A stretch of DNA of 64,000 nucleotides, from the NCBI GenBank assembly GCA_964558415.1, contig CAZLDI010000007.1, positions 75,898 to 139,897 on the forward strand, in the 5' to 3' direction. Origin of the DNA: an uncultured Dehalococcoidia bacterium (GTDB lineage Bacteria; Chloroflexota; Dehalococcoidia; SM23-28-2; RBG-16-64-32). The notes under the pieces were generated by a model. That model was not told the DNA's origin and ran no database searches. It was given only the letters and a program-made list of their open reading frames with translations. A program made the position numbers and the translations under genes. This document shows, piece by piece, positions 3,228-51,114 of this stretch (position 1 is the first letter of the stretch; every line of letters begins with the position of its first letter).

Positions 3228-3292
3228 GTGAGATTCGTTCGCCCTCCGCACCGCCTTCCTTCCGCCCCCCTCGGCTCGGAATGACAGAGGGG
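3228..3292 (+). repeat. REP-like dispersed intergenic repeat copy (GAGATTCGTTCGCC...GCTCGGAATGACAGAGG)
   Basis: Shares its 5' (AGATTC-TTCGC) and 3' (GCTCrGAATGACA) ends with at least 8 other copies. It abuts the stop codon of the TPR lipoprotein gene. Confidence 0.7.
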
Positions 3293-3733
3293 TTAGCGGG
3301 CGCGGATTTCGTCGAGGAGCTTCTGGGCGGGGATGGACGTGTCCGGGTCTGAAGTGAGTTGCATCGCGTAGGCGAGGTCGGTGAGGGCCTTCTCGAAGTC
3401 AGCGAGCTGGTAGTAGGCGAGGCCGCGCTCGTAGTAGGTGTTGCCTCGATCGGGATCCAACTGGAGCGCCTTGTTGAAGTCGGTGATGGCGGCGCCGTAG
3501 TTGGCGGAGAGGAGGTAGGCGACGCCGCGGGAGTGGTAGATGAGCGGCTCTTCCGGGGCGAGGGCGACGGCGGCATCATACTCAGCGATCGCTTCTGCGT
3601 ACTTCGTTTCCTGGGCGAGGGCGACGCCGGTGTTGTGGCGCTGGAGGGCCTGCGTGCGCGCGCTGAGATCGTCGCTGCAGGTGGCGGCGACGAGGAGGGA
3701 GGCGAGTGGGAGGAACAGGAGTAGTCGCGTCAT
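3293..3733 (-). CDS. TPR-repeat lipoprotein
   Basis: Signal peptide with lipobox (LLVAATC), followed by 3 TPR-like repeats. Confidence 0.8.
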   Translation of the reverse strand: MTRLLLFLPLASLLVAATCSDDLSARTQALQRHNTGVALAQETKYAEAIAEYDAAVALAPEEPLIYHSRGVAYLLSANYGAAITDFNKALQLDPDRGNTYYERGLAYYQLADFEKALTDLAYAMQLTSDPDTSIPAQKLLDEIRAR

Positions 3734-3842
3734 GGTGTTCAGGGATTAAGACGGCGCTGGTGGCGCTCGCGTTGCGGCTCACGCGCGCCAACGATGCGAC
3801 CGAGTGGGTCTGCGGATCGCGCGGGGATTAGTGTCCGTCCCC

Positions 3843-4151
3843 TTAGGGGACGGTGATGGTGATGCCTTCGGTCTGCTGGAGTTGCTCCCAGGTGATGGTG
3901 CGCTCGGCGAGCACGGTCTGGTCGCAGACCTCGCCGTCGCAGAGGAAGCGGATCTCGTAGGTGAGGCTGCCGCGGAACTGGAGGGTCTCGAAATCACGGG
4001 AGGCGCCGGCGGAGATGAGCTCCGTCGGGACGCCGTCCTCGTAGACGACGATCGTCTGGTCGGTCTTGTTTTCGACGCGGATGGTCTGGCCGTCGTCGCA
4101 GGCGGCGACGGCGGTGGTGAGGAGGAGGACGAGTAGCAGTAACGGCGCCAC
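3843..4151 (-). CDS. small secreted lipoprotein, start uncertain
   Basis: h-region LVAPLLLLVLLLTTAVAAC with lipobox VAAC. The only in-frame start after the n-region is the GTG at 4151. The positively charged n-region (LARLANRSRG) is encoded inside a REP copy, and the only upstream ATG is at 4361. The stop codon sits in the loop of a hairpin (CCGTCCCC-tta-GGGGACGG, ~3838-3860). Confidence 0.4.
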   Translation of the reverse strand: MAPLLLLVLLLTTAVAACDDGQTIRVENKTDQTIVVYEDGVPTELISAGASRDFETLQFRGSLTYEIRFLCDGEVCDQTVLAERTITWEQLQQTEGITITVP

Positions 4152-4204
4152 GAGGAAGGCGCCCCGACTCCGGTTGGCGAGACGCGCGAGATCCTGTCCA
4201 AGAT

Positions 4205-4272
4205 GGCAAACTGTGAGATTCGTTCGCCCTCCGCCCTGCCTTCCTTCCGCCCCGCTCGGCTCAGAATGACAG
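4205..4272 (+). repeat. REP-like dispersed repeat copy
   Basis: GAGATTCGTTCGCCCTCCGCCCTGCCTTCCTTCCGCCCCGCTCGGCTCAGAATGACAGAGG, nearly identical to the copy at 3228-3292. Confidence 0.7.
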
Positions 4273-4282
4273 AGGCGGGCGT

Positions 4283-4345
4283 TGCGCAGGATGGTGGATC
4301 CCGGGATGCGTTCGCCCCCCCCACCCGCCCGACTCGGAACGGCAG
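4283..4345 (+). repeat. degenerate REP-like copy abutting the polA stop codon
   Basis: GATGCGTTCGCCCCCCCACCCGCCCGACTCGGAACGGCAGAGGGG. Its 3' end (GGCAGAGGGGTCAGG) parallels GAATGACAGAGGGGTTAGC at the TPR gene tail. Confidence 0.5.
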
Positions 4346-4350
4346 AGGGG

Positions 4351-7206
4351 TCAGGACGCAAACTCGCCGACCTCCACGGGTTCGCCGTATCGCATCTCGC
4401 CCCAGTTGCGGCCTGTTTTCGTGTCCACCTTAAGGGGAACGCACATTTCCAGGGATTTGGGCATTATGTCGATGCAGAGGGAGCGGACACCCTCCAGCTC
4501 ATCGCGGGGGCACTCGAAAATCAGCTCGTCGTGGATCTGGAGGGTCATGAGGCTGCGTAGTTTGCGGCGCTCCATCTCAGCGTCGAGGCGGTTCATCGCG
4601 ATCTTGATGATGTCGGCGGCGGTGCCCTGGACGGGCATGTTGATGGCGGCTCGCTCAGCGGCGTTGCGGACGTTGAAGTTGGTGGAGTTTATCTCCGGGA
4701 TGTAGCGCCGGCGGCCGAAGAGCGTCTCCGCGTAGCCGAGGCTGCGCACGGTGGAGGTCGTCTCGGAGACGTAGCGCTGGATGCCGGGGTACTTCTCGAA
4801 GTAGGTGCGGATGAACGTCGCGGCCTCTTCGCGGGAGATCTTTTCGCGGACTGAGAGGCCGAACTCGCTGAGTCCGTACAACACGCCGAAGTTAAAGACT
4901 TTGGCGCGCCGGCGCATTGCGGTCGTCACCTGATCAAGGGGAACGGCGAAGACCTGCGAGGCGGTGGCGGCGTGGATGTCGTCGTCGCGCAGGAAGGCTT
5001 CGACAAGGTTGGGGTCCCGGGTGATGTGGGCGATGATGCGCAGCTCGATCTGGGAATAGTCGGCCGCCAGGAGCATCGGATCCGGCCCAACGTCGCGAGC
5101 GATGAAGGCGCGTCGGATCTGCTCGCCGAGCTGTGTGCGGACAGGGATGTTCATAAGGTTGGGATTGCTGGAGGCGAGGCGTCCGGTGGCGGCGCCGGTC
5201 TGGTTGAACTCCGTGTGGATGCGGTTGGTACGCGGGTTGACGATGAACGGCAGCGTGTCGAGGTAAGTAGACTTCAGCTTGGTGAGCTCGCGGTGCTCGA
5301 AGATGAAGTCGATGACCGGATGCATGCCACGCAGGTTCTCCAGAGACTGGGCATCGGTGCTGTAGGCGCCGGTCTTGAGGCGGCGGGTCTTCGGCAGGTG
5401 CTGCTCCTCGAAGAGCACGTGCGAGAGCTGCTGAGGGGAGCCGATGTTGAACTCGTGGCCGGCGGCGGCGTAGATCTCCTCCTCGAGCCGGCGAATTTCC
5501 ATCGTGAGTGACTCCGACATCTCGCGCAGCGAGCCAGTCTCGATGGCGACGCCGTTCAGCTCCATGCGCGCCAGGACTGACACGAGCGGCATCTCGATCT
5601 CGTCGAAGAGGCTGCGCATGCCCTTCTCCTCCAGCTCCGGTTCGAGGAGATCACGCAGGCGCGCGGCGGCATCCACGGAGGCGCAGGCGTAGGCCGCCGC
5701 AGCCTCCACATCGAGCTCAGCCATTGTGAGCTGGGCGGCCTTGCGGCCAGACGGCCGCCCGTCCGGGCGAGCGCCGGCGCCGAGAAGCTGGGAGCGGTCC
5801 GGCAGCCCGATGCCCAGACGGCGTGAGGCGAGCCAGCTCAGGGCGAGCGCGCCTTCCTCCGGGCGTCCCGCGCCGCCGCCCTCGCCCAGGAGGTGGGCGG
5901 CGATCATGGTGTCGAAGTCGACGCCGCGCGCCCAGACGCCGTGGCGGGCGAGGGTGACGAGGTCCGGCTTGAGATAGTGGCCGCTGATGCGGACGTCCGG
6001 CGACTCGATGAGGGGCCCGAGGCGGGCGAGAACGGCGTCGAGCGGCAGCTGGGGGTCCTCGCCGAGGCGGACGGCGTGGCCAACGGGGATATAGTGCGCC
6101 TCGCCGCCTCCGAGACCGACCGTCAGGCCAACGATATCGGCGCGCATCGGCTCGCTGGACGTGGTCTGGGCGTCGAGCAGGAAGCGCTTCTGGTCCGCGA
6201 TGCGATCGACGACGGCCGCCAGTTGGTCTTCCGTGCGGACGGTGGTGAAGCGCTGCTCGACAGGCGATGCCGCGAGCGGCAATTGCTGCGCCTCCGGAGC
6301 GCGGTCAATGCCGTGTGGGAGGCGCGAGACGAGCGTCCGGAACTCGAGCTCCCGGAAGAGCTCGGTGACGCGCAAGGGATCGTAGTGGGCGTAGAAGTCC
6401 GCGGCGGCGAGGTCAAGCTGGACGGGCGCCTTGGTGTCGATTGTCGCGAGGTGCTTGCTCTGGCGGAGCTGGTCCGCGTTCTCGCGGAAGACGGGCTGGA
6501 AACGGGCGGGCTGGATCTCGTCGATGCGGTCGAGGAGCGCCTCGACGGATCCAAACTCGTCGACGAGCTTGACGGCGGTCTTGTCGCCGACACCCGGGAC
6601 GCCGGCGATGTTGTCGGAGGTGTCGCCCTTGAGCGCTTTGAGATCGGGCATCTGGTGGGGCAGGACACCGTAGCGGTCCTTGACGTCGGCGGCGGTCTTG
6701 TAGAGGACGGAGTCTCGCTGGTAGGGGCGGTACATCCAGAGGTGGACGCCGGGCTGGACAAGCTGGGCGATATCGCTATCCATGCTCACGAGATACGTCT
6801 CGACGCCCTGCCCAGCGGCCTGAACGGAGAGCGCGCCCATGAGGTCGTCGGCCTCGAAGCCGGGGAGCTCGCTGACGGGAATGCCGAAGACGGCGATGAC
6901 CTGGCGGCAGCGGTCGATCTGGGCGCGCAGTTCATCGGGCATAGCGACGCGCGTGGCCTTGTAGGTGTCGGTGATCTCATGACGGAAGGTCGGCCCGGGC
7001 GAGTCGAGGGTGATGATCACGTGAGTGGGCTTGAGCTCACCGAACATGGCGAGGAAGGTGTTGGTGAAGCCGAAGACGGCGCCGACAAGCTCGCCGGTGG
7101 CGCGGACCTTGAGGGGCTCCTTCATGCCGGCGAGGGCGTGGAAGGAGCGGTGGATGATGGAGTGGCCGTCGATGAGGACGAGGCGGGGGGGAGGGGTATC
7201 GCTCAC
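4351..7206 (-). CDS. polA: DNA polymerase I
   Basis: 951 aa with 5'-3' exonuclease, 3'-5' exonuclease and polymerase domains. Motifs include LIDGHSIIHR, DYSQIELRI and QVHDELIFE. Confidence 0.97.
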   Translation of the reverse strand: MSDTPPPRLVLIDGHSIIHRSFHALAGMKEPLKVRATGELVGAVFGFTNTFLAMFGELKPTHVIITLDSPGPTFRHEITDTYKATRVAMPDELRAQIDRCRQVIAVFGIPVSELPGFEADDLMGALSVQAAGQGVETYLVSMDSDIAQLVQPGVHLWMYRPYQRDSVLYKTAADVKDRYGVLPHQMPDLKALKGDTSDNIAGVPGVGDKTAVKLVDEFGSVEALLDRIDEIQPARFQPVFRENADQLRQSKHLATIDTKAPVQLDLAAADFYAHYDPLRVTELFRELEFRTLVSRLPHGIDRAPEAQQLPLAASPVEQRFTTVRTEDQLAAVVDRIADQKRFLLDAQTTSSEPMRADIVGLTVGLGGGEAHYIPVGHAVRLGEDPQLPLDAVLARLGPLIESPDVRISGHYLKPDLVTLARHGVWARGVDFDTMIAAHLLGEGGGAGRPEEGALALSWLASRRLGIGLPDRSQLLGAGARPDGRPSGRKAAQLTMAELDVEAAAAYACASVDAAARLRDLLEPELEEKGMRSLFDEIEMPLVSVLARMELNGVAIETGSLREMSESLTMEIRRLEEEIYAAAGHEFNIGSPQQLSHVLFEEQHLPKTRRLKTGAYSTDAQSLENLRGMHPVIDFIFEHRELTKLKSTYLDTLPFIVNPRTNRIHTEFNQTGAATGRLASSNPNLMNIPVRTQLGEQIRRAFIARDVGPDPMLLAADYSQIELRIIAHITRDPNLVEAFLRDDDIHAATASQVFAVPLDQVTTAMRRRAKVFNFGVLYGLSEFGLSVREKISREEAATFIRTYFEKYPGIQRYVSETTSTVRSLGYAETLFGRRRYIPEINSTNFNVRNAAERAAINMPVQGTAADIIKIAMNRLDAEMERRKLRSLMTLQIHDELIFECPRDELEGVRSLCIDIMPKSLEMCVPLKVDTKTGRNWGEMRYGEPVEVGEFAS

Positions 7207-7228
7207 GGGGGGATTATAGCAAGCGGCA

Positions 7229-7304
7229 ATGGGTCAGCGGGGGCAGGGGGTCAAATGGGGCAAAGGGTCGACAGGGGCAAGGATCAACGGCGCAGGAGGG
7301 GTCA
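7229..7304. repeat. G-rich motif cluster (GGGTCA / GGGGCAAGG) related to the fpg-upstream minisatellite, in the polA/MaoC divergent intergenic region
   Basis: ATGGGTCAGCGGGGGCAGGGGGTCAAATGGGGCAAAGGGTCGACAGGGGCAAGGATCAACGG shares GGGGCAAGG and GGGTCA cores with 3081-3206. Confidence 0.4.
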
Positions 7305-7323
7305 CGAACGCGGGCTGGCTGAA

Positions 7324-8247: not shown

Positions 8248-8338
8248 GAGAGCGGGCGGCAACTTGACGGCAATAGCGGCGCGCGTATACTAGGTTGCGC
8301 TTCAAGTAACGCCCTGATTCAACCTCAAGGAGACTGTC

Positions 8339-9184: not shown

Positions 9185-9220
9185 TCCGGCGGGTACTGCG
9201 AGCCAACCGATAGATCGGCG

Positions 9221-9253
9221 CTCGCTCATGGTACGAGGGCCACCATGAGCGGG
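9221..9253. terminator. hairpin downstream of the rhodanese gene
   Basis: GCTCATGGT-acgagggcc-ACCATGAGC. Confidence 0.4.
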
Positions 9254-12068: not shown

Positions 12069-13316
12069 GTGAGCCAGAGACTGCCCCTGGAAGGCGTCAA
12101 GGTAGCGGACTTCTCCTGGTTCGGCGCGGGGCCGATCTGCGGGCGGCTGCTCGCTGACTACGGGGCCACGGTGGTGCGGATCGAGTCGGAGACGCACCTG
12201 GACTCGCTGCGGATCGTGGCGCCGTTCGCGAAGGGGAAGACGGGGTACAACGTCAGCGGGTACTTCAACAACTACAACGCTGGGAAGCTGGGCATCCTGC
12301 TCAACCTGAACACGGATGAGGGGATACACATCGCGCACAAGTTGATTGAATGGGCGGACGTATTCCTGACCAACATCACACCGCGCACGATTGAGCGCTG
12401 GGGGTTTACGTACGACAAGCTGATAGAGCTCAACCGAGAGATCATCGGCGTTTACGTGCCGATGCAGGGCTTCGATGGCCCACACAGGGACTTCCTGGGG
12501 TTTGGCGCGGTGCTGACGCCGATAACGGGGTATAACCATCTGTCGGGGTTCGCGAACCGTCCGCCGTTCGGACTGGGGACGAACTATCCGGACTACGTGA
12601 TCAACCCGGGGCACACGTTCGTCGCCATCATGGCCGCGCTGCGCTACAGACGGCGGACGGGGAAGGGGCAACGGATCGAGGTGGCGCAGATCGAGTCTTC
12701 GGTGGCACCCCTGGGGCCGGCGGTCTTCGACTACACGGCGAACGGGCGGGTGCAGACGCGCAGCGGGAACGGAATAGCGAACGCCGCGCCGCACAACGCG
12801 TTCAAGTGCAGGCCGCTGACGGACGGCGGCAGGCCGATGGATGAGCGCTGGATCGTCATCGCCTGCTTCAGCGACGACGAATGGAGCGCGTTCGTGCAAG
12901 CCATGGGGAGCCCGGAATGGGCGCGCGACACGAAATTCTCGACCCTTGCCGCAAGGAAGTCGAACGAGGCGGAGATGGACGCGCATATCAACGCCTGGAC
13001 GGCGGACAAGGACGCGTACAAACTGATGGCTGAGCTGCAGGGCCGTGGCGTGCCGGCCGGGGTGGTGCAGAGCGCGCGCGAGATCCTGGACGTGGATGAG
13101 CACATGAAGGCGCGGGGGTATTACGTGTACCTGAAGCATCCGGAGGCGGGCCGTCACGCGCACGACGGGCCGCCGTTTGTGCTCTCGAAGACGCCAGGGC
13201 GGCTGCGGTCGCCGGCACCGTGCCTGGGGGAGCATACGGAGTACGTGTGCAAGGAGATCCTGGGGTTGGACGACGAGGGGATCGCGGAGCTGATGGTGGC
13301 GGGGGCGCTGGCGTAG
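12069..13316 (+). CDS. family III CoA-transferase (second, tandem paralog)
   Basis: VKVADFSWFGAGPICGRLLADYGATVVRIE. GTG start 9 bp after the upstream gene. Confidence 0.85.
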   Translation: MSQRLPLEGVKVADFSWFGAGPICGRLLADYGATVVRIESETHLDSLRIVAPFAKGKTGYNVSGYFNNYNAGKLGILLNLNTDEGIHIAHKLIEWADVFLTNITPRTIERWGFTYDKLIELNREIIGVYVPMQGFDGPHRDFLGFGAVLTPITGYNHLSGFANRPPFGLGTNYPDYVINPGHTFVAIMAALRYRRRTGKGQRIEVAQIESSVAPLGPAVFDYTANGRVQTRSGNGIANAAPHNAFKCRPLTDGGRPMDERWIVIACFSDDEWSAFVQAMGSPEWARDTKFSTLAARKSNEAEMDAHINAWTADKDAYKLMAELQGRGVPAGVVQSAREILDVDEHMKARGYYVYLKHPEAGRHAHDGPPFVLSKTPGRLRSPAPCLGEHTEYVCKEILGLDDEGIAELMVAGALA

Positions 13317-13330
13317 GGGAGATTTCTGCG

Positions 13331-13422
13331 CACGGATAATGTTCACACCCCTCTCCCCCGCCGGATTCCTTCGCGAAGGGACATGAGCCCACGTTCGAGC
13401 CAGGTGGCCGCTCAGAATGACA
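13331..13422 (+). repeat. REP-like dispersed repeat copy
   Basis: GTTCACACCCCTCTCCCCCGCCGGATTCCTTCGCGAAG...GCTCAGAATGACA. Confidence 0.75.
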
Positions 13423-13430
13423 CGATCGGG

Positions 13431-13480
13431 ACGATGAGGGGATCGCGGAGCTGATGGTGGCGGGGGCGCTGGCGTAGGGG
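13431..13480 (+). repeat. direct repeat of the CoA-transferase 3' tail (copy 2 of 3)
   Basis: GACGATGAGGGGATCGCGGAGCTGATGGTGGCGGGGGCGCTGGCGTAGGGG matches 13272-13319 (the native tail, DDEGIAELMVAGALA*) with 1 mismatch. Confidence 0.85.
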
Positions 13481-13515
13481 CACGTGGATGCGGGGGATGC
13501 TGCCAGCGAACGCCG

Positions 13516-13595
13516 TTCACACCCCACACGCCGCCAGATTCCTTCGCGAAGAAGCACCGTGCCACGCCCCGAATGTGGCAGTCGCTCAGAATGAC
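13516..13595 (+). repeat. REP-like dispersed repeat copy
   Basis: TTCACACCCCACACGCCGCCAGATTCCTTCGCGAAG...GTCGCTCAGAATGAC. Confidence 0.75.
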
Positions 13596-13597
13596 TT

Positions 13598-13640
13598 GGG
13601 GATCGCGGAAGTGACGGCGGTGGCGGCGCTGGCGTAGGGA
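13598..13640 (+). repeat. diverged third copy of the CoA-transferase 3' tail
   Basis: GGGATCGCGGAAGTGACGGCGGTGGCGGCGCTGGCGTAGGGA encodes GIAEVTAVAALA*, against GIAELMVAGALA* in the native tail. Confidence 0.6.
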
Positions 13641-15818: not shown

Positions 15819-16229
15819 TCAAGGCTCCATTCGTTTGACGTTCGTGATGCGATCGAAGTCCGCATCGTAGCTGAAGAGCTCCGTCAGGCCCAGCCGCTCC
15901 ATATGCGCGACGGTCAGGGCATCTTCGAAATCGATCCTCGGATGCGAGGCCCAGATGTCCAGCGCCCGCACGCAGGCTCCTTTATGGGCGAGCTTGAGGC
16001 CGCGGAGCGTCAGTAGCGGGCGCAACCGCGCGCCTATGTCCACCGGTGTCAGGCCGTAATGGGCACGGGAACGGAGCACGTAACAGACCTCGGCGATGAT
16101 CACCTCCGACGTCGTCACAACCTCGTGCCCCGCCTTCACTCGCTGAAATAGAGCGAAGCAGGCCTCCGCCTTCCTCTCATCGCCCGCAACCAGATAGCGG
16201 AGGAAGACGTTCGCGTCCAGGAACCTCAC
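15819..16229 (-). CDS. vapC: PIN-domain ribonuclease toxin VapC
   Basis: MRFLDANVFLRYL..., with acidic PIN residues (D5, E, D). Confidence 0.8.
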   Translation of the reverse strand: MRFLDANVFLRYLVAGDERKAEACFALFQRVKAGHEVVTTSEVIIAEVCYVLRSRAHYGLTPVDIGARLRPLLTLRGLKLAHKGACVRALDIWASHPRIDFEDALTVAHMERLGLTELFSYDADFDRITNVKRMEP

Positions 16230-16486
16230 GTCCCGTCGCCGGCCTCCGCTGTCGCTTTCTCATCGCGAGCGGCGCGGCTGACGGACCTGAAGTCCCTGGT
16301 GCGCGTTGCCGGCTTGACCGAGGCAAACGCGGACTCCAGGGTGAATCTGGCGGGAAGCAGCTGGACCTTGTCGTCTTCGATCGAGAATGCGACCTTGTCT
16401 CTTGGCTTAAGGCCGAGAAGGCGCCGCACCTCCGACGGGACGGTCACCTGGCCACGTTGCGTCATTGTCGTAACTATCTCCTTCAT
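16226..16486 (-). CDS. vapB: AbrB/MazE-type antitoxin VapB
   Basis: SpoVT/AbrB swapped-hairpin N-terminus (TQRGQVTVPSEVRRLLGLKPRDKVAF). 4-bp overlap with vapC. Confidence 0.8.
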   Translation of the reverse strand: MKEIVTTMTQRGQVTVPSEVRRLLGLKPRDKVAFSIEDDKVQLLPARFTLESAFASVKPATRTRDFRSVSRAARDEKATAEAGDGT

Positions 16487-16694: not shown

Positions 16695-18338
16695 ATGGCG
16701 ATGATAGACGGCGGCGACCTAGTGGTGCGCGCGATCAAGCAGGAGGGCGTGGATACGATATTCACGCTGTGCGGCGGGCACGTGCAGGCGATCTACGACG
16801 CGTGCCTGGACGAGAACGTGCGGGTGATCGACACGCGGCACGAGCAGGTGGCGGGGCACGCGGCGGAGGGGTGGAGCCGGGCGACGCGGCGCTGCGGGGT
16901 GGGGGTGGTGACGGCGGGGCCGGGGGTGACGGACTGCACGACGGCGATCGCGAACGCCTGGCACAACAAGAGCCCGATGCTGATCATCGGCGGCCGCAGC
17001 CCGCTGTCTCGCTTCGAGATGGGGTCGCTGCAGGATATGGACCACACGGAGATGCTGAAGCCGATCACGAAGTGGGCGAAGTGCGTACACGAGACGAAGC
17101 GCATCCCGGAGTACATCTCGATGGGGTTCCGGGCGGCGCTGACGGGGCGGATGGGGCCGTCGTTCCTGGAGATCCCGACGGACGTGCTGTTCATGAAGGT
17201 GGAGGAGAACGAGGTGTTCTTCCCGCAGAGCTATCGTCCGGAGGGTCGCGTCTATCCTGACCCGAAGAGCGTGCGCAAGGCGGCGGAGGCGCTGCGGAGC
17301 GCCGAGCGGCCGGTGATCATGGCGGGCTCGGCGATCTACTGGAGCGAGGCGCACGAGGAGCTGCGGGAGCTGGCGGAGCTGATGCAGGCGCCGGTGTACC
17401 TGAACGCGATGGGACGGGGCTCGCTGAACCAGGAGCACGCGCTGTTCTACAGCCGCAGCCGGCGGACGGCGCTGACGAAGGCGGACTGCATCCTGGTGAT
17501 CGGGACGCCGATGGACTTCCGGCTGTCGTACGGGAAGCGATTCAACCCCGAAGCGAAGACGATCCAGGTGGACACCGATCCCGCGGAGCTGGGCCGCAAC
17601 CGCGACATCGACATCCAGCTCGAGGCCGACGCCCGGGCGAGCCTGGAGTCGCTGACGGCGGAGCTTTCCGGGTTCAAGGACGATCACAAGGCGTGGTTGG
17701 GGGAGCTGCGGGAGCAGGAGGACAAGACGCGCGCGCAGATGGAGGAGTGGATGGCGAGCGACCGCGAGCCGATCCACCCGCTGCGGTTGTGCGCGGAGAT
17801 GGCGAACTTCGTGGACGAGAACACGATCGTCGTGGGCGACGGCGGGGACATCGTCAGCCACGCCTCGAAGATACTGCCGGTGAACCAGCCCGGGCAGTGG
17901 TATGACCCGGGCCCGTTCGGGACGCTGGGCGTGGGGACGGGTTTCTGCATGGCGATCAACAGCGTGTACCCGAACAAGCGCATCCTGATGGTCAACGGCG
18001 ACGGGGCTTTCGGGCTGAACGGCTTCGACTTCGACACGTTCGTGCGCTTCAACATCCCGGTGGTGTCCGTGGTGGGGAACGACCGGCAATGGGGACAGAT
18101 CACGGTGGGACAGCGCGCGATGTACGGGAAGGACCGGGTGGTGGCGAGCATGCTGGGGGACGAGTGCCGGTACGACAAGATCGTCGAAGGGATGGGCGGC
18201 CACGGGGAGTACGTCACGAAGCCGGACGAGATCCGGCCGGCGATCGAGCGGGCGTTCGCATCCGGGAAGCCGGCGTGCGTGAACGTAATTATGGACCAGG
18301 AGCCGCCTGGGATCATGGGCGGGTACGAGTTTATGTAG
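16695..18338 (+). CDS. thiamine-pyrophosphate-dependent enzyme (acetolactate synthase / oxalyl-CoA decarboxylase family)
   Basis: 547 aa with PYR, central and PP domains. ThDP motif GDGAFGLNGFDFDTFVRFNIPVVSVVGND. RBS GGAAGGAG upstream. Confidence 0.85.
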   Translation: MAMIDGGDLVVRAIKQEGVDTIFTLCGGHVQAIYDACLDENVRVIDTRHEQVAGHAAEGWSRATRRCGVGVVTAGPGVTDCTTAIANAWHNKSPMLIIGGRSPLSRFEMGSLQDMDHTEMLKPITKWAKCVHETKRIPEYISMGFRAALTGRMGPSFLEIPTDVLFMKVEENEVFFPQSYRPEGRVYPDPKSVRKAAEALRSAERPVIMAGSAIYWSEAHEELRELAELMQAPVYLNAMGRGSLNQEHALFYSRSRRTALTKADCILVIGTPMDFRLSYGKRFNPEAKTIQVDTDPAELGRNRDIDIQLEADARASLESLTAELSGFKDDHKAWLGELREQEDKTRAQMEEWMASDREPIHPLRLCAEMANFVDENTIVVGDGGDIVSHASKILPVNQPGQWYDPGPFGTLGVGTGFCMAINSVYPNKRILMVNGDGAFGLNGFDFDTFVRFNIPVVSVVGNDRQWGQITVGQRAMYGKDRVVASMLGDECRYDKIVEGMGGHGEYVTKPDEIRPAIERAFASGKPACVNVIMDQEPPGIMGGYEFM

Positions 18339-18461
18339 GGAGCAGCGATGCGCGCTATCAGCTGATGAGCTCACACTCCGCCGCCCGGGATGATCCACGG
18401 AATTGGCACAGATGTACACGGAGAATGAGCCGCTCGGCTACCCGCAGATGAGAGTAGATGG

Positions 18462-19367
18462 ATGCCACGCATAGACTACGGCGGCGGGCTGACTATCGAC
18501 GCGCCGGAGGGGATGACCGTCCTTGAGACGTCGATCCAGCATGGGCTGGAGCACAGGGCCGCCTGCGGCGGACAGGAGCGCTGCACCACCTGTCGAATCG
18601 AAATACTTGACGGTACTGAGAACTGCCCGCCGAGCACGGCCGGCGAGCGCGAGGTCCTGGAGCTCGGAGGCTTTGGGGAAGACATCCGGCTCGGCTGCTC
18701 TCTCAGGCCATCGGGCGATATCAAGATCCGGCTTCTCGTCCGCGAGAGGATCGGTAAAGAAGACCTGCGACCGGAGGGGATGGCGCGAGAACGGGAGGTG
18801 GCCGTTTTGTTCGCGGATATCCGCAACTTCACCGCCTTCTCAGAGAATCACCTCGCTTTCGACGTCCTGCATCTTCTCAACCGCTACTTCGACCGTATGG
18901 GCACTATCATCGACTTCAATCGCGGCGAAGTGATTGCCTTCCTGGGAGACGGAATCGTCGCCTTCTTCGAGGGCGGCGACCCGACGCGAGCGGCAGTCGC
19001 CGCCACGCGGTGCGCCACCCAGATGCTCAAGGGCGCGCAGGCATTCTCGCGCTACTCAACTGAGCACTTCGGTTTCGATGTGCGGACCGGCATTGGCATC
19101 GCCTTCGGCCCGGCGGTGATCGGCGAGGTCGGGTACTACCGCAACACCCGTCCGAACTGTATCGGCGACGTGGTGAACACCGCGTCGCGCGTACAGGACG
19201 CAACGAAGGAACACGGCGCGTCTCTCCTGGTGACGGACGCCATCCGCAAGCTAGCCGAAGGCAAGTTCGAGTTCGGGCGCGAGTTTACCTGCGAGCTGCG
19301 CGGCAAGGAGGGAGAGCATCAGTTGTACGAAGTGCTGCGGGAGAAGCGAAGTCGCGCTCGTGCTTGA
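18462..19367 (+). CDS. 2Fe-2S ferredoxin domain fused to a class III adenylate/guanylate cyclase catalytic domain
   Basis: N-terminal ~95 aa carry Cys C-x5-C-x2-C...C (ACGGQERCTTC...LGCS). The C-terminal cyclase homology domain has metal-binding Asp residues (VLFADIRNFT, LGDGIVAFF) and transition-state residues (NTASRV). Confidence 0.85.
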   Translation: MPRIDYGGGLTIDAPEGMTVLETSIQHGLEHRAACGGQERCTTCRIEILDGTENCPPSTAGEREVLELGGFGEDIRLGCSLRPSGDIKIRLLVRERIGKEDLRPEGMAREREVAVLFADIRNFTAFSENHLAFDVLHLLNRYFDRMGTIIDFNRGEVIAFLGDGIVAFFEGGDPTRAAVAATRCATQMLKGAQAFSRYSTEHFGFDVRTGIGIAFGPAVIGEVGYYRNTRPNCIGDVVNTASRVQDATKEHGASLLVTDAIRKLAEGKFEFGREFTCELRGKEGEHQLYEVLREKRSRARA

Positions 19368-19490
19368 CGCTGCGTTGTGACACGGGTCACAGGCAAAAGG
19401 CGGGAGGAGGTCTATCATGCGAGCGGGCCGCGCGGTGGCAAGGAGAACTTCGCCGCTCCCGACGCAGGGAGGGAAGGGCCAGGTGACAAG

Positions 19491-21230
19491 ATGAGACTCA
19501 TGGAAGCTGAACGGAAGGCAAGCGTCGACGTCTGCCCCCTCGAAGAGCTTCAGCGCGAGCGCGTGAAGGTCGTCTCGGCGGAGGGGCGCGTAATCGCGGT
19601 GTTCTACGAGGAAGGGAAGCTCTACGCGCTGGACAACCGCTGCCCGCACATGGGCTTCCCGTTGAATCGCGGGACTGTGAAGGACGGCATCCTGACCTGC
19701 CACTGGCACCACGCGAAGTTCGATCTCGCCGGGGGCTGCACGTTCGACCCTTTCGCGGACGACGTGACGCGCTTCCATGTGGAGGAGCGCGAGCGCACGG
19801 TCTGGCTCGATCCGAGGCCGATCGAGGAGGACCGGCGCGTACACTGGCTGGGCAAACTCGACGAGGGGCTGGAACAGAACCTGCGATTAGTGCTGGCGAA
19901 GAGCGTGATCGGCCTCGAGGGGCTCGACGCGACGCGAGATATTCTGACCAAGGCGGCGCTCTTCGGGATACGCAACCGGGTGTCGGGCTGGAGCAGCGGC
20001 CTCTCGATTATGACGGGGATGGCAAACGTGCTGCCGTCGCTCGACGAAGCCGACCGGCCTCTGGCGCTGTACCAGGGACTCGTGCACGTCGCCCGGACGA
20101 CCGAGGGGCAGCCTCCGAGCTTCGATCTCGAAGCACTTAACACAGATGAGAAGCGGCCGGCGCGCTATCTCGACTGGTTCCGGCGCTTCATCGAGGTGCG
20201 GGCGGAGGACGCGGCGGAGCGGACGCTGCGCACGGCGATCCGCATCGGGCTGCCAGAGCGGGCGGTGGCAGACATGGTTTTCGCTGCCTGTACCGACCAC
20301 CTCTTCCTGAACGAGGGGCACTCACTGGACTTCGCGAACAAGGCGTTCGAGCTGCTGGACCACATCGGCTGGGAGCACGCAGAGGAGGTGCTGGTCTCGC
20401 TCATCCCCGACTTCATCCAGGCGACGCGAATGGAAGAGACGTCGCCCTGGCGGCACCCAGTCAACTTACCGGAGCTACTGGGCGAGGTCTACCAGCAGCT
20501 CGATGCGGCGATCGATGAGGGCGGCGGGAAGCTGAACGGATGGGCTGAACACCAAGCGCTGGCGGAGCAGATACTGGACGGCGAGCCGAAGGAGACGCTC
20601 GCTGCGATGCTAGACGCTGTGCGGCAGGGTGCGCCGCTGACGGAGCTTTCGGCGACAGTGGCGTACGCGGCGGTGCGGCGACCGGTGCACTTCCGCGTGA
20701 CGAACGAGTTCGCCGACTGGGACACGATCCACCACACGTTCACGTACGCCAACGGCGTCGACCAGGCGGTGCGGCGGGCGCCGTCAAAGCTGCTGGCGCG
20801 CGGCATCTTCGACGGGGCAATGTCGGTTTACCTGGAGCGATTCCTCAACGTCCCCAAGCAGCCTATACCGACGCCCTCGGGTGGCACGGCCAGTCGTGGG
20901 GAAATATTGGCCTCATTCGACGAGCAAGGGAAGGTGGATGAGGCGGCGCAGCAGGTGGCGGACGCGATCGCCGCGGGGAATCAGAGCGAAATAATTGGGA
21001 CACTGGGCCACGCGTTGCTGCGGGAGGACGCGCACTTCCACCAGTTCCAGATCTACGAAGCGGGACTCCGCCAGTACGGCAACTTCGGTAATACACCGCT
21101 GGGTGACCACGTTCTCATCGGGACGACGCGCTTTCTGGCGGCGCGCTCACCGACGGTGCGGGCGACACCGCAGACGTACGACATCGCGGCGCGGCTGCAT
21201 CGGGGAGAGTCCCTGCACGGGGAGGATTAA
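19491..21230 (+). CDS. Rieske [2Fe-2S] domain protein with a large uncharacterised C-terminal helical domain
   Basis: Rieske boxes CPHMG...CHWHH near the N-terminus. RBS AGGGAGGGAAGG upstream of the ATG at 19491. The ~440-aa C-terminal region has no recognised motifs. Confidence 0.75.
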   Translation: MRLMEAERKASVDVCPLEELQRERVKVVSAEGRVIAVFYEEGKLYALDNRCPHMGFPLNRGTVKDGILTCHWHHAKFDLAGGCTFDPFADDVTRFHVEERERTVWLDPRPIEEDRRVHWLGKLDEGLEQNLRLVLAKSVIGLEGLDATRDILTKAALFGIRNRVSGWSSGLSIMTGMANVLPSLDEADRPLALYQGLVHVARTTEGQPPSFDLEALNTDEKRPARYLDWFRRFIEVRAEDAAERTLRTAIRIGLPERAVADMVFAACTDHLFLNEGHSLDFANKAFELLDHIGWEHAEEVLVSLIPDFIQATRMEETSPWRHPVNLPELLGEVYQQLDAAIDEGGGKLNGWAEHQALAEQILDGEPKETLAAMLDAVRQGAPLTELSATVAYAAVRRPVHFRVTNEFADWDTIHHTFTYANGVDQAVRRAPSKLLARGIFDGAMSVYLERFLNVPKQPIPTPSGGTASRGEILASFDEQGKVDEAAQQVADAIAAGNQSEIIGTLGHALLREDAHFHQFQIYEAGLRQYGNFGNTPLGDHVLIGTTRFLAARSPTVRATPQTYDIAARLHRGESLHGED

Positions 21231-21277: not shown

Positions 21278-21371
21278 CGGGCGTTCGCGTCAAGGAAGCC
21301 TCCGTTCGTGAACGTGATTATGGACCAGGAGCCGCCTGGGATCATGGGCGAGTACGAGTTTATGTAGGGAG
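21278..21371 (+). repeat. diverged direct repeat of the 3' tail of the TPP-enzyme gene (copy 2), 2.95 kb downstream of the native tail
   Basis: The core GTGAACGTGATTATGGACCAGGAGCCGCCTGGGATCATGGGCGAGTACGAGTTTATGTAGGGAG (21308-21371) matches 18279-18342 with 2 mismatches, and weaker similarity extends ~30 bp further upstream. In frame it encodes ...RAFASRKPPFVNVIMDQEPPGIMGEYEFM*, against ...RAFASGKPACVNVIMDQEPPGIMGGYEFM* in the native gene. Confidence 0.85.
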
Positions 21372-21401
21372 AGGCGGTGCCCCGCGGCGGAGAGTAGTCT
21401 C

Positions 21402-21434
21402 CCGCTCATCCTACGAGTGCCTCAGGATGAGCGG
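21402..21434. terminator. hairpin following the displaced TPP tail copy (probable original terminator of the TPP gene)
   Basis: CCGCTCATCCT-acgagtgcctc-AGGATGAGCGG. Confidence 0.4.
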
Positions 21435-22707: not shown

Positions 22708-23121
22708 TCAGGCAGCCGGCTCCACGCGGGTGATGCCTGGCAGGCGGTCGAAGTCCGTGTCCCAGGTGTAGATTTCCGAGAGGCGCTGGGAACGCATGAA
22801 GGCGGCGTTGTACGCGTCCGCAAACGACAGACGGGTTGTCGCGTAGACATCCAGCGCTTCGTAGTAAGTTTGCTTATCGGCGATTCGGACGTTCGGTAGC
22901 GCAAGGACGTACTGCAGGTCGTCCCGGATCTTTGCTCTGGGGACCACGTAGCTCTTCTCGAGGATGAAGACTGTCTCAAAGATGACCATCGGTGAGACGG
23001 TCACCTGTTCTTCCCCAGCTTCCACGCGCAGAAGCAGCGCCACCACCCGCGACGCCTTCTCTTCATCGTCACGGGTGAGAAGGCGGACGAGGATGTTGGT
23101 ATCAAGGAAGCGGTGCGCCAT
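22708..23121 (-). CDS. vapC: PIN-domain toxin VapC (second pair)
   Basis: MAHRFLDTNILVRLL... The start ATG at 23121 was chosen over the longer ORF-caller extension. Confidence 0.8.
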   Translation of the reverse strand: MAHRFLDTNILVRLLTRDDEEKASRVVALLLRVEAGEEQVTVSPMVIFETVFILEKSYVVPRAKIRDDLQYVLALPNVRIADKQTYYEALDVYATTRLSFADAYNAAFMRSQRLSEIYTWDTDFDRLPGITRVEPAA

Positions 23122-23125
23122 GATC

Positions 23126-23383
23126 CTACCGCTCAGTCTCGGACAGTACTTCCTCGGCCACTCCCCGTTCGAACTCTTCGCGCAATTGTCGGAAGTCTTC
23201 GGGCCTGCTGCGCGGTGAGACTGAGCCGTACATCGCAAGAATCCCCGACGCCTTCCTCAGCCTCGCGGTCTCCCCGTCGATCTCGAAGGCGATCTTATCT
23301 CGCGGCTTGAGGCCCAGCCGCAAGCGGATCTCCTTGGGTATAGTCACTTGGCCTTTCACTGTTAATGTCGTTTGTTTCAGCAT
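23126..23383 (-). CDS. vapB: AbrB/SpoVT-type antitoxin VapB (second pair; paralog of 16226-16486)
   Basis: MLKQTTLTVKGQVTIPKEIRLRLGLKPRDKIAF. 4 bp upstream of vapC. Confidence 0.75.
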   Translation of the reverse strand: MLKQTTLTVKGQVTIPKEIRLRLGLKPRDKIAFEIDGETARLRKASGILAMYGSVSPRSRPEDFRQLREEFERGVAEEVLSETER

Positions 23384-23500
23384 ACGCTCCATACCCTCTA
23401 TCCGTAGCAATACCGTCTTCTATCAGTAATACTATCACATGCCGGGTCGACGCAGTTGAGATGTGGGCGGGCATGCCTGAACGCCCGGGGCGCGGCCTGA

Positions 23501-23579
23501 TCCACCACGCCGCCAACCCCAGATTCCTTCGCGGCGAGAGTAATCGCAGGTTGCGAGCGTTGGGGCGCTCAGAATGACA
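23501..23579 (+). repeat. REP-like dispersed repeat copy
   Basis: CCACCACGCCGCCAACCCCAGATTCCTTCGCGGCGAG...GGCGCTCAGAATGACA. Confidence 0.75.
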
Positions 23580-23605
23580 GAGGGAGCCGGGCTCCGCGGG
23601 AAAGC

Positions 23606-23639
23606 GGAGCGCCCCCCGGCGTCCGGAGCGGGGGGCGCT
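23606..23639. terminator. GC-rich hairpin downstream of the ferritin-like gene
   Basis: GAGCGCCCCCCG-gcgtccgga-GCGGGGGGCGCT. Confidence 0.4.
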
Positions 23640-31568: not shown

Positions 31569-31595
31569 TGGGGATAGCCTGCGACCGGAACCGCT

Positions 31596-31677
31596 TGACC
31601 CACCGCGCCTCCGCCACCCGGATTCCTTCGCGGCAAGCGGGGTCGGCGCGTTCCACTGGATGGGCGCTCAGAATGAC
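31596..31677 (+). repeat. REP-like dispersed repeat copy
   Basis: ACCCACCGCGCCTCCGCCACCCGGATTCCTTCGCGGCAAG...GGGCGCTCAGAATGAC. Confidence 0.75.
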
Positions 31678-31683
31678 GTGGGT

Positions 31684-45215: not shown

Positions 45216-45281
45216 TGGCAATCGGCAATGGGAAGGCGGCGATCGGGTCCTGCGGGCGCTCGGCGGTGAGAGTTTAGACGA

Positions 45282-45794: not shown

Positions 45795-45827
45795 AGGCCG
45801 CAACGTCGACTCCCGCGATCGGGTAGT

Positions 45828-45910
45828 CTGACCCACGACCCCACGCCGCCCAGATTATTCGCGAAGATACGGCTCGCCGCGATCGGGGCGTGTCGCCGCT
45901 CAGAATGACA
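45828..45910 (+). repeat. REP-like dispersed repeat copy
   Basis: GACCCACGACCCCACGCCGCCCAGATTATTCGCGAAG...CGCCGCTCAGAATGACA. Confidence 0.7.
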
Positions 45911-45944
45911 TCGAGGCGACCGTTCAGTCGCCCGGAGGTGGCGC

Positions 45945-46181: not shown

Positions 46182-46300
46182 CGAGTGTCGCTCCTCCTGG
46201 TATGCGGGATGCGCCGGACCGCAGCTCCGGGGCGGAAGATGGCGTAAGTATACAGTGGATGATGGGTGGTTGTCAGTGGTCAGCCAGTAGTGGATAGTGG

Positions 46301-49081
<2,781 letters not shown>

Positions 49082-49111
49082 GGATCCCTTCGCGTCGCTT
49101 ATGAACAACCC

Positions 49112-49636
49112 ATGCGACTTGATTTCTCCGGCGCACCAGCGAAGGCATTCAAGCAGGTCTGGATAATCCATGGGCTGATGGCCGGCGGCGTGCTAGTTTG
49201 CGCGGTCGCGGGGGAAACTGTGATAAGGGTGGACCCAGAGTTTGAGCGTCGAGGGGGATACACCGCGTTCGGTGATGTAGCCTGGGCGGTTCGCGCTGCT
49301 GCATTGCTCTTTCTGGTGCAGATGGCTCTTCTACTACTACTAACGCCGGAGCGGTGGGTGCTCCGCAAGGTGATGGAACTCCGTCCACAGAACATCGACC
49401 TGGCCGTGACCCGCACTCTCACAAGCGTTCAAGTTGTGAGAAGCGCTCAGGGTCCCGTGGTTGCGACCTTTGGTGTCCTCCTGTTCTTCGGGAGTGCCGA
49501 TAGATCCGACATATACGTCAGCGCCGTTTTCGCGCTGAACCTGCTATTCTTTTGGCGCCCCACACGCAGCCAATGGGAGAGTTTCTTCCACCGGGCGGCA
49601 ACTCAATATGAGGGAGTCTCGGCTCGGCCCTGGTAA
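49112..49636 (+). CDS. hypothetical membrane protein (4 TM helices)
   Basis: Hydrophobic helices. No family recognised. Confidence 0.45.
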   Translation: MRLDFSGAPAKAFKQVWIIHGLMAGGVLVCAVAGETVIRVDPEFERRGGYTAFGDVAWAVRAAALLFLVQMALLLLLTPERWVLRKVMELRPQNIDLAVTRTLTSVQVVRSAQGPVVATFGVLLFFGSADRSDIYVSAVFALNLLFFWRPTRSQWESFFHRAATQYEGVSARPW

Positions 49637-49746
49637 GGTGCGGTGATCCAAGTGCATGCCCAATGCCCGCCCACCGCGTGAAATTCGCCGTCACCTATGC
49701 GTCGCTGCTAGAATACAGCCGTCGTGCCTTCCGGAGCAGGTGGAAC

Positions 49747-50961
49747 ATGGGATCTAATCAGGCCATAGAGCGCGCGAAGGAGCACTTCGCGCATGTAGTC
49801 GCCGGACAGCTGGCGCGGGTGGAGCGGATGAAGGCGGCGGAGGACTGGACGGACTACGGGTCGCTGAAGCCGATCATTCTCGGCGTCTGCGGGGGCGACG
49901 GGATCGGGCCGTACATCACCGCGGAGGCGCGGCGGGTGCTGGCGTTCCTGCTGGCGCCGGAGGTGGAGAGCGGGAAGGTGGTCTTCCGCACGATCGAGGG
50001 GCTGACGATCGAGAACCGCGCGCAGCAAAACACGGCGATACCGGACGACGTGCTGGCCGAGCTGAAGAAGTGCCATGTCATCCTGAAGGGCCCGACGACG
50101 ACGCCGCGCGCGGGGGACCAGTGGGCGAACATCGAGAGCGCGAACGTGGCGATGCGGCGGGAGCTGGACTTGTTCGCGAACGTGCGGCCGGTGCGTGTGC
50201 CTGAGCAGGGGATCGACTGGATCTTCTTCCGCGAGAATACGGAAGGGGCGTACATCCTGGGCAGCCACGGGGTGAATGTGACGGAGGACCTGGCGATCGA
50301 CTTCACGGCCGTGACGACGCAGGGGAGCGAGCGGATCATCAAGCTGGCGTTCGATCACGCGAGCCGCAACGGGATCAACAAGGTGACGGTGGTGACGAAG
50401 GCGAACGTGGTGAAGACGACGGACGGGAAGTTTCTGGACACGGCGCGGAGGATCTCGAAGGATTACCCGGAGGTGGTCTGGGACGACTGGTACATCGACA
50501 TCATGACGGCGAAGCTGGTGGACCCGAAGCGGCGGACGGAGTTCAAGGTCGTCGTGCTGCCCAACCTTTACGGCGACATCCTGACGGACGAAGCGGCGGA
50601 GTTCCAGGGGGGCGTGGGGACCGCGGGCAGCGCGAACATCGGCAAGCGGTATGCGATGTTCGAGGCGATCCACGGCAGCGCGCCGCGCATGGTGGACGAG
50701 GGACGCGCGGACTACGCCGACCCGAGCAGCATGATCCGGGCGGCGGCGATGCTGCTGAACCACACCGGTTTTGCGGACCGGGGCAAGCGGCTGGAGATGG
50801 CGCTGGACGTGTGCGGGAACCTGGAGAAGCGGCTGGTCGTGACCGGACGGCCGACGGGGGCGAAGGGGTCGGAGTTTGCCGATTACATCATGGAGACGCT
50901 GCAGGACTCGGGGCTGGAGGAGAAGTGGCGGGGGTACCAGGATGGAGGAAGTAGGAAGTAG
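49747..50961 (+). CDS. icd: isocitrate dehydrogenase (isocitrate/isopropylmalate dehydrogenase family)
   Basis: NLYGDILTD motif and the SANVAMRRELDLFANVRPV region. Genomic context with acnA and mdh. Confidence 0.75.
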   Translation: MGSNQAIERAKEHFAHVVAGQLARVERMKAAEDWTDYGSLKPIILGVCGGDGIGPYITAEARRVLAFLLAPEVESGKVVFRTIEGLTIENRAQQNTAIPDDVLAELKKCHVILKGPTTTPRAGDQWANIESANVAMRRELDLFANVRPVRVPEQGIDWIFFRENTEGAYILGSHGVNVTEDLAIDFTAVTTQGSERIIKLAFDHASRNGINKVTVVTKANVVKTTDGKFLDTARRISKDYPEVVWDDWYIDIMTAKLVDPKRRTEFKVVVLPNLYGDILTDEAAEFQGGVGTAGSANIGKRYAMFEAIHGSAPRMVDEGRADYADPSSMIRAAAMLLNHTGFADRGKRLEMALDVCGNLEKRLVVTGRPTGAKGSEFADYIMETLQDSGLEEKWRGYQDGGSRK

Positions 50962-51080
50962 GAAGAAGGAAGGTGGAGGTAGGAAGCCCGTGGGGCATAT
51001 CACCCTGGAGCGGGACGAGGGTCGCGGCTAACGGGGACGCTTCGACGTGTCCCGCCGGTTGTTGGAGACCGTGAGCTAAC

Positions 51081-51114
51081 CCGGACGGATTCTTCGCTGC
51101 GCTCAAGAATGACA
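51081..51114 (+). repeat. short REP-like copy immediately 5' of the mdh RBS
   Basis: CCGGACGGATTCTTCGCTGCGCTCAAGAATGACA. Confidence 0.5.

Follow-up and report, generated by a model that had tools for sequence, protein, structure and literature searches.

Repeat copies in the window

We analysed a 64-kb stretch of DNA from an uncultured Dehalococcoidia bacterium (64,000 nt of contig CAZLDI010000007.1, hereafter the window), in which copies of a short intergenic repeat, the element of this study, lie between genes on both strands, as an initial annotation of the window had reported. Pfam scans of the window genes return housekeeping functions along with two genes for PIN toxins, one of them paired with an antitoxin; the gene content of 41.6–52 kb is taken from stored annotations of identical or syntenic contigs. 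New here is the finding that about a quarter of the copies are flanked by duplications of gene ends. The + strand of the window, as used in the initial annotation, serves as the reference orientation, and L-numbered loci are 8–21-kb pieces of other genomes.

The 3′ block of the element, GCTCAGAATGACA, has seven matches in the window with at most two mismatches, all seven on the + strand, against a chance expectation of 0.99. The 5′ block alone is less specific (nine matches, 4.5 expected). A profile hidden Markov model (HMM) trained on the five best copies recovers those five full copies and no others, all on the + strand (13341–13423, 13515–13599, 23498–23580, 31596–31680, and 45829–45912; E 1e-17 to 1e-19). 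With filters off, the top eight matches of a covariance model (CM) in the window all lie on the same strand. They comprise the five full copies and three others, at 4185–4276 and 3200–3291 (E about 0.002–0.003) and at 51058–51119 (E = 0.11). On the opposite strand of the window, the CM finds nothing credible, the best matches lying inside genes with E of at least 0.2. The repeat is confirmed as a real dispersed intergenic family. The window holds five full copies, two subfamily-II copies, one degenerate copy, and one short form, all on the + strand:

3200–3291, + strand: subfamily-II copy (GAGATTCGTTCGCC ... GGCTCGGAATGACAGAGGGG), 86% identical to 4195–4275; CM E = 0.003
4185–4276, + strand: second subfamily-II copy, upstream of the minus-strand lipoprotein gene; CM E = 0.002
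4277–4350, + strand: degenerate subfamily-II copy, in tandem with the copy at 4185–4276; CM E only 8.3
13268–13319, + strand: left-hand direct repeat (X1), formed by the functional final 52 nt, stop codon included, of the CoA-transferase gene 12069–13316
13320–13428, + strand: full unit E1, 109 nt between direct repeats; core GATTCC...GAATGAC at 13364–13421; CM E = 8e-17
13429–13480, + strand: direct repeat X2, a non-coding relic of the CoA-transferase 3′ end, 98% identical to X1
13481–13598, + strand: full unit E2, 118 nt; CM E = 1e-14
13599–13640, + strand: direct repeat X3, an older remnant of the gene's original end, 79% identical to X1
23490–23584, + strand: full-length copy between two minus-strand genes; HMM and CM
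31589–31683, + strand: full-length copy; HMM and CM
45821–45915, + strand: full-length copy with the block B variant GATTATTCGCG; HMM and CM
51058–51119, + strand: short form GGATTCTTCGC-TGC-GCTCAAGAATGACA, without the variable middle; CM E = 0.11

The coordinates of the initial annotation prove accurate to within a few bases, and its description of a dispersed, co-oriented repeat is upheld by the HMM and the CM. Its nine copies do not stand as nine independent events. Two loci hold tandem copies, leaving seven independent loci, and the co-orientation within the window is therefore only modestly significant (p ~0.016).

Reading and aligning the sites bears out the architecture proposed earlier. 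From 5′ to 3′, a unit consists of a C-rich 5′ part, block B (GATTCCTTCGCG), a variable stretch of 33–36 nt, and block C (CGCTCAGAATGACA). The C-rich arm (40–55 nt) is poorly conserved, the middle is constrained to 33–36 nt between block B and the CGCTCAGAATGAC of block C, and a tail of ~7 nt after CGCTCAGAATGAC closes the unit, giving a full length of ~107–121 nt. A protein-coding middle is ruled out from the alignments by single-base length differences and the lack of a codon-like pattern.

As the initial annotation noted, several copies touch stop codons (TPR gene, 3293; polA, 4351; fabF, 31684) or the mdh ribosome-binding site. In particular, the copy at 3200–3291 has its 3′ end 2–7 nt from the TPR stop codon (minus strand), and the degenerate copy, for which the main evidence is that it aligns with the copy at 3210, ends in ...GGAACGGCAGAGGGG right at the polA stop codon. 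The copy at 31589–31683 and its 5′ arm occupy the entire 115-nt spacer from the thioesterase start (31568) to the fabF stop. The copy at 45821–45915 lies between convergent genes, a biotin-carrier gene and a gene for an AsnC-type regulator, and the copy at 23490–23584 is followed by a G+C-rich, terminator-like hairpin (23609–23638). The short form is the 3′ part of a ~130-nt insertion upstream of mdh that is missing in relatives.

Two other sequence features adjoin copies. A purine-rich GGAAGTAGGAAGTAGGAAG... tract at the end of the isocitrate dehydrogenase gene (50940–50985 in the window, ~150–190 in L195) is kept in relatives, and the ~130-nt insertion directly follows it. A run of ~20 tandem 8-nt units (GGGGCAAG / GGGTCATA / GGGGCATA variants; 3057–3222) lies between the likely true Fpg start and the copy at 3200; that start is suggested by the Pfam domain, which begins at residue 34 of the open reading frame (ORF) 2245–3162.

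Duplicated gene ends at the insertion sites

At the 3′ end of the CoA-transferase gene, the last 52 nt (13268–13319) recur after E1 (13429–13480, 98%) and again after E2 (13599–13640, 79%), and the original downstream sequence resumes after X3. E1 and E2 share the 5′ arm GTTCACACCCC and differ in their middles. Fifteen orthologues of this gene have a single gene end, with no duplication and no element in the reference orientation. Two of the fifteen, L115 (1938–2033) and L118 (just past the gene end at 1322), carry insertions of opposite orientation right after the same stop codon. These are independent insertions in two other lineages, at a gene end that holds two reference-orientation copies in the window.

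All long-form copies were searched for direct repeats between the upstream and the downstream flank, and the results were compared with controls. In an ungapped test, sixteen cases score 17–85, against 6–11 in controls, with repeats of 18–85 nt. In a gapped test, 12 of 50 non-tandem copies, about a quarter, lie above the maximum of 100 control comparisons. The right repeat begins 0–11 nt past the element end in 13 of the 16 best cases, and 2–13 nt downstream of GAATGAC in most junctions examined; in the clean cases, the left repeat ends 38–56 nt upstream of GATTCC. Seven clean single-insert cases have 117, 109, 120, 120, 107, 107, and 121 nt between the repeats. The 3′ junction of the element is thus shown to be sharp and the 5′ junction loose. 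No terminal inverted repeats are found on inspection of the ends that the duplications define. In other phyla (short forms and the Clostridia long form), we find composite tandem arrays only and no clean single-insert cases.

The duplicated stretch is a gene terminus. In the window and in L024 it is a gene 3′ end including the stop codon, and in L070 it is the first 26 codons of a succinyl-CoA-synthetase-like gene. Five further loci (L057, L065, L112, L078, and L124) still carry, beyond the element, a relic of the former gene start with its start codon and ribosome-binding site, and in three of them (L057, L065, and L124) the relic N-terminus is still present. These cases show that when the few dozen bases at either end of a gene are the target, the gene stays intact through one of the duplicates, and the second decays to a relic. 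Insertions in the first or last 20–80 bases survive because the duplication restores the terminus. This is a concrete way of remodelling gene ends that leaves relic starts and stops behind.

Filled and empty sites together indicate, therefore, that the elements were inserted and that insertion duplicated a target of 18–85 bp. The duplicated stretch, on this comparison, is shown to be both long and variable.

Truncated copies keep the 3′ end. Only two clear 5′-truncated copies were found, one right after a full copy (L034, 3768–3808) and one in L013 (6049–6076). Bacteroidales arrays begin with one full B–C unit, after which the C unit alone is repeated. In L075, in L028, and at 13.3 kb in the window, the element and its flank are repeated together in tandem.

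Duplicated gene ends also flank gene-sized insertions in the window. The 3′ end of mdh (last 49 nt with stop, 52018–52066) recurs at 52875–52923 (96%), after a methyltransferase gene (52087–52875), and at 54451–54499 (86%), after an α/β-hydrolase–cyclase gene (53068–54393). No small element is found at the junctions of these repeats (gene end, insert, gene end), and relatives have other genes after mdh. Similarly, the last ~100 nt (18249–18351) of a thiamine-pyrophosphate enzyme gene (16695–18338) recur as a relic, 89% identical, at 21278–21380. This relic lies 3.0 kb downstream, after a two-gene segment encoding a Fer2-cyclase (18462–19367) and a Rieske protein (19377–21230). What duplicates the gene ends may be an insertion process general to this genome, which carries the small element more often than any other cargo. 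The element-free duplications weaken the claim that the element dictates the mechanism and strengthen a replication or repair route.

Several features lie near these insertions. The genes 53068–54393 and 54535–55869 are tandem paralogues with ~75% DNA identity, each combining an α/β-hydrolase with an adenylate/guanylate cyclase and each preceded by an mdh 3′-end copy and a shared leader, CTGTAGAATAGCCGCA.CATGGAACC. Just past the relic gene end, a perfect 11-bp inverted repeat, CCGCTCATCCT(N11)AGGATGAGCGG (21402–21434), is terminator-like, and its arm TCAGGATGAGCGG resembles block C. The PIN-domain toxin genes are located at 15819–16486 and 22708–23238, the first adjoined by a MazE/PrlF-type antitoxin gene (16226–16486).

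Strand orientation, folding, and distribution

The GC skew of the window + strand is positive throughout, 0.157 inside + genes and 0.094 inside − genes. Because it is positive inside both, it reflects strand more than transcription. We inferred replication direction from local GC skew in 8-kb loci, taking the G-rich strand as the likely leading strand. Of 49 pattern matches in Chloroflexota loci, 37 have the reference orientation on the G-rich strand. Counted as unique locus-strands with |skew| of at least 0.04 (n = 34, related Chloroflexota contigs), 26 lie on the G-rich strand and 8 on the other (p = 0.003). The bias persists both where the two neighbours are transcribed against the element (15 to 3) and where they are transcribed in its direction (13 to 4). 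These counts support an orientation tied to the DNA strand and not to the direction of the flanking genes. Of the oriented insertion proposed in the initial annotation, the strand link holds independently of genes; the analogy with repetitive extragenic palindromic (REP) sequences, RAYT, and IS200 that came with it does not, as discussed below. A strand-oriented, replication-linked insertion is supported by indirect evidence.

Relative to the reference orientation, both neighbouring genes are opposite in 37 of 74 contexts, both run the same way in 22, and the neighbours are convergent in 13 and divergent in 2. Divergent spacers being so rare, the element avoids pure promoter spacers. The complementary form lies downstream of a same-direction gene in ~70% of contexts, ~30% of copies are antisense to both neighbouring genes, and inverted pairs are always head-to-head.

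The variable middle had been described as often self-complementary, and this is not borne out. Single window copies folded on both strands do no better than shuffled sequence, and over 55 long-form copies (window and relatives) the mean minimum-free-energy z-score against dinucleotide shuffles is ~0 for core and middle on either strand. Consensus folding of both strands yields nothing but a closing helix between blocks B and C (a 5-bp helix plus a 2–3-bp helix), and the 55 copies contain no significant palindrome beyond this 5+3-bp helix. On the complementary strand, the helix consists of AUUCU/GGAAU (five pairs including U·G), a GA/GAA purine internal loop, and GCG/CGC (3 bp); the reference strand has a C·A mismatch in place of the fifth pair. 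Pairing in the closing helix reaches 99.5% across 117 distinct copies, the fifth pair being U·G in 93, C-G in 6, and U-A in 4. Divergent copies carry compensated variants (ATCCC/GGGAT, ATTGC/GCAAT, ATCGC/GCGAT, and ATCC/GGAT), and L125 carries a further change, from U-A to C-G. On this covariation the closing helix is real, and the folding strand, if there is one, would be the complement of the reference strand.

Copies of the element contain neither a U-tract nor a stable hairpin. The whole window has no Rfam 15 match at gathering score, and permissive Rfam scans of the window copies and of a Bacteroidales array give chance-level matches only. A tRNA or tmRNA origin was rejected, the window containing no tRNA or tmRNA genes. 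Likeness to a promoter, a kink-turn, a hammerhead, or a DnaA box was judged by eye only; the consensus fits none of these and none is claimed.

A pattern scan of one genome per species, with both blocks 21–50 nt apart, lists at least 111 loci, against ~2 chance matches that we estimate from the information content of the pattern. Among the matches listed, many Chloroflexota and Dehalococcoidia genomes carry the long form, including its C-rich 5′ arm, and further copies are present in Acidobacteriaceae, Verrucomicrobia, Spirochaetaceae, and Pseudomonadota. Within this Chloroflexota lineage, copies also lie on the 2.78-Mb contig CAVQVC010000001.1. A rabbit-gut Clostridia genome carries a second long form. 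In Bacteroidales the element takes the short form GATTCCTTCGC-TTC-GCTCGGAATGACA, and additional block-C units often come after it. A viral origin was rejected, since neither the long nor the short form matches anything in 2.9 million viral contigs. Conservation of the hairpin core in several phyla suggests a common recognising factor.

In five loci from Bacteroidales and Acidobacteriaceae (L010, L047, L082, L094, and L016), the short form is followed by block-C tandem runs (...CTTCGCTCGGAATGACAGRRG...) with a period of ~22–27 nt. Such arrays are easily mistaken by CRISPR finders or ORF callers.

The window stems from a soil Chloroflexota. Its malate dehydrogenase is 83–86% identical to proteins named Chloroflexi or Dehalococcoidia, and a fragment identical to window DNA is present in a Joint Genome Institute (JGI) soil metagenome. 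Relatives with 89–92% identical malate dehydrogenase have no copy in 11–21 kb of syntenic DNA. In 80 loci with CoA-transferase orthologues (548 kb), we find only five copies, compared with nine in the 64 kb of the window, indicating that the element expanded in particular lineages. In L022, L074, and L013, copies lie at the same site upstream of ATGGCGATAGAGAC, with blocks B and C kept and the middle diverged.

Probable mobility, rival explanations, and likeness to known systems

We favour the explanation that the repeat is a small non-coding, non-autonomous mobile element of Chloroflexota, with long target duplications and a strand bias, and consider this probable, with real room for doubt. 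The sharp 3′ junction, the loose 5′ junction, the 3′-anchored truncated copies, and the C-unit arrays suggest copying from one fixed end. With the G-rich strand as the leading strand, copies would be made by a directional copying step with such an end. A nascent strand would depart from the chromosomal template, copy the element template (RNA or single-stranded DNA), and re-enter behind its departure point, most simply by template switching or target-primed synthesis, for example at a nick, at the replication fork. Synthesis would start at the 3′ end of the template in the reference orientation or run off its 5′ end in the complementary orientation. Specifically, a fork-coupled copy-choice or retroposition mechanism is a tentative proposal that we would not bet on. 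Similarly speculative is the wider idea that the elements and the gene-sized insertions are products of one replication-coupled copy-and-insert process, by template switching or target-primed (reverse) transcription at the fork, and that the element, recognised through its cross-phylum hairpin, is a bacterial counterpart of the short interspersed elements (SINEs).

If the favoured explanation is correct, the element would be a bacterial mobile element whose signature is unusual: duplications that are long and variable, a single fixed end, and a preference for one of the two replication strands. This signature would point to a mobilisation route outside the transposase families usually invoked for REPs and for MITEs (miniature inverted-repeat transposable elements). 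If a single copy-and-insert process operates, insertions would routinely rewrite first or last codons and supply new starts or 3′ regions. In practice, elements and relics can be expected to give false short ORFs and misplaced start codons in Chloroflexota metagenome bins, and to break assemblies there.

Several observations weigh against mobility of this kind. Only about a quarter of the copies show a flanking duplication, the others being perhaps old or inserted without one, and no microhomology is seen at the duplication junctions. The gene-sized insertions duplicate gene ends without the element, so duplication is perhaps a general property of the genome and not an act of the element. The strand bias is ~3:1 and not absolute, and the replication direction comes from 8-kb skew, not from a mapped origin. 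A simple single-strand-DNA model does not fit, because the strand that would be single-stranded as lagging-strand template is complementary to the one that pairs best. The data fit an RNA and a DNA intermediate alike, and no mobilising enzyme was identified, none being encoded in the window. In addition, the related copies were mostly retrieved from metagenome-assembled contigs by the exact block B plus C pattern, which biases both the B/C conservation and the copy counts.

Among the rival explanations, the one that survives best, itself unlikely, is a host-serving RNA or DNA signal under selection (an mRNA 3′-end stabiliser, a terminator or insulator, or a protein-binding site), with the duplications incidental. 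Conservation of the B/C core across Chloroflexota, Bacteroidales, Clostridia, Acidobacteriota, Verrucomicrobia, and Spirochaetaceae, with none in the viral contigs, fits such a signal. So do the placement of the complementary form after same-direction genes, the members of inverted pairs each following their own gene, and the avoidance of divergent spacers. Copies at the orthologous site in L022, L074, and L013 keep blocks B and C; however, this conservation is inflated, as the loci were retrieved by an exact B/C match. At the CoA-transferase and mdh sites, close relatives lack the copies, and the element is therefore dispensable there. The copies antisense to both neighbours and the absence of a U-tract, a stable hairpin, and an Rfam match in the scans above also count against a host signal. 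A host signal leaves the flanking duplications unexplained, and it could coexist with mobility instead of replacing it. A role of the element in the transcript is possible.

We regard as improbable that the element is a miniature derivative of an IS1634/IS1549-type DDE insertion sequence. The direct repeats of IS1549 and IS1634 measure 8–514 bp, with no mechanism proposed, and these are the only bacterial insertion sequences reported with long variable repeats (PMC2266710). The 18–85-bp duplications fall inside this range. In the literature on the motif, its peptide translations, and long bacterial duplications, nothing else relevant was found. However, the ends defined by the duplications carry no terminal inverted repeats, and no transposase is encoded in the window. 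One sharp and one loose end, with truncated copies retaining the 3′ end only, are unexpected for two-ended cut-and-paste, and a replication-strand bias is not among the described properties of the family.

It seems very improbable to us that the element is a REP, a bacterial interspersed mosaic element (BIME), or a palindrome element derived from IS200/IS605, moved as single-stranded DNA on the lagging-strand template by a Y1 (HUH) RAYT/TnpA that sets its orientation. The element is intergenic, high in copy number, and strand-biased, and RAYT-like genes do occur in the same lineage (L066, 1384–1914; L057, 2141–2746). They lie near copies of the element and were found by tblastn with two transposase sequences, which gave a RAYT-like gene in L066 (E = 1e-15) and a weaker match in L057. 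However, these genes are bordered not by the element but by their own GTAG-tagged palindromes (for example, GTAGGGGCGAAcggcgTTCGCCCC) in tandem 72–73-nt units (L057, 2115–3076; L066, 1398–1969). By these matches, classical REP/RAYT systems do occur in the lineage, and the element studied here is not part of them. IS200/IS605 single-strand transposition makes no target duplication, in contrast to the 18–85-nt duplications observed (12 of 50 copies above every control), and the better-pairing strand is the copy on the C-rich strand. Strand bias, for its part, is documented for IS608 and ISDra2 (PMC6006769). One end of REPs carries a conserved tetranucleotide tag, GTAG or CGTC (PMC3733652). The alignments reveal no such tag at either end of the element, and no palindrome is present beyond the 5+3-bp helix. 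We therefore set aside the REP/RAYT/IS200 reading of the initial annotation, which itself saw no tnpA or RAYT gene in the window: Pfam scans, annotations, and tblastn find no transposase there, and the Pfam scans and annotations also find no integrase or reverse transcriptase.

There is also very little to recommend a resident copy that was never inserted and that, as a replication obstacle or recombination hotspot, duplicates its neighbouring sequence. The element-plus-flank tandem arrays, the clustering of duplication junctions within 13 nt of one element end, and the similar duplications without any element would agree with it. However, slippage over a resident element would yield two copies, and most cases have a single element between the repeats; orthologous sites lack both element and duplication; and in L057, L065, and L124 the old gene start lies beyond the element, as if the element had landed inside the gene. 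Ordinary MITEs, which have inverted termini and short fixed target duplications, are excluded by the lack of inverted termini and by the long, variable duplications.

Compared with known systems, the putative mobile element shares with REPs, BIMEs, and REPINs that it is short, non-coding, high-copy, and intergenic, lies downstream of genes, and is kept out of divergent promoter spacers, and the IS200/IS605 mechanism has a known orientation bias relative to replication, like that of the element. It differs from REP/RAYT systems in having neither a 20–40-nt palindrome nor a GTAG/CGTC tag, in not being linked to the RAYT genes found, and in its ~110-nt length, one sharp and one loose end, and long flanking duplications. 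With IS1634/IS1549 it shares long direct repeats of variable length. These insertion sequences are, however, 1.5–2 kb long, with a transposase gene and terminal inverted repeats, whereas the element is ~110 nt long without inverted termini and has 3′-anchored truncations and a strand bias.

Like integron attC sites, the element has two imperfectly complementary short blocks around a variable centre of constrained length, co-oriented copies, and strand-specific folding linked to replication. Unlike attC sites, its blocks (GATTCCTTCGCG and CGCTCAGAATGAC) do not follow the R″/R′ consensus (RYYYAAC / GTTRRRY), the window contains no integrase and no cassette array, and the copies are separated by housekeeping genes.

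Mycobacterial interspersed repetitive units (MIRUs) and Rickettsia palindromic elements (RPEs) are units of 40–150 nt whose insertions into coding sequence are tolerated. Like the element, they are oriented, sometimes tandem, and located between or within gene ends, abutting stops or starts; the sequence of the element is unrelated to theirs. To our knowledge, long target duplications and a replication-strand bias have been described for neither.

SINEs are spread by target-primed reverse transcription. We know of no SINE-like element of this kind in bacteria. The element differs from SINEs in having no A-rich tail or known internal promoter, and no partner reverse transcriptase is encoded in the window. 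It resembles SINEs and other products made by non-LTR retroposition (retroposition without long terminal repeats, LTRs) in being non-autonomous and non-coding and in having variable target duplications. It may also share with SINEs a defined 3′ end, a variable or truncated 5′ end, and a 3′-terminal segment reiterated in tandem.

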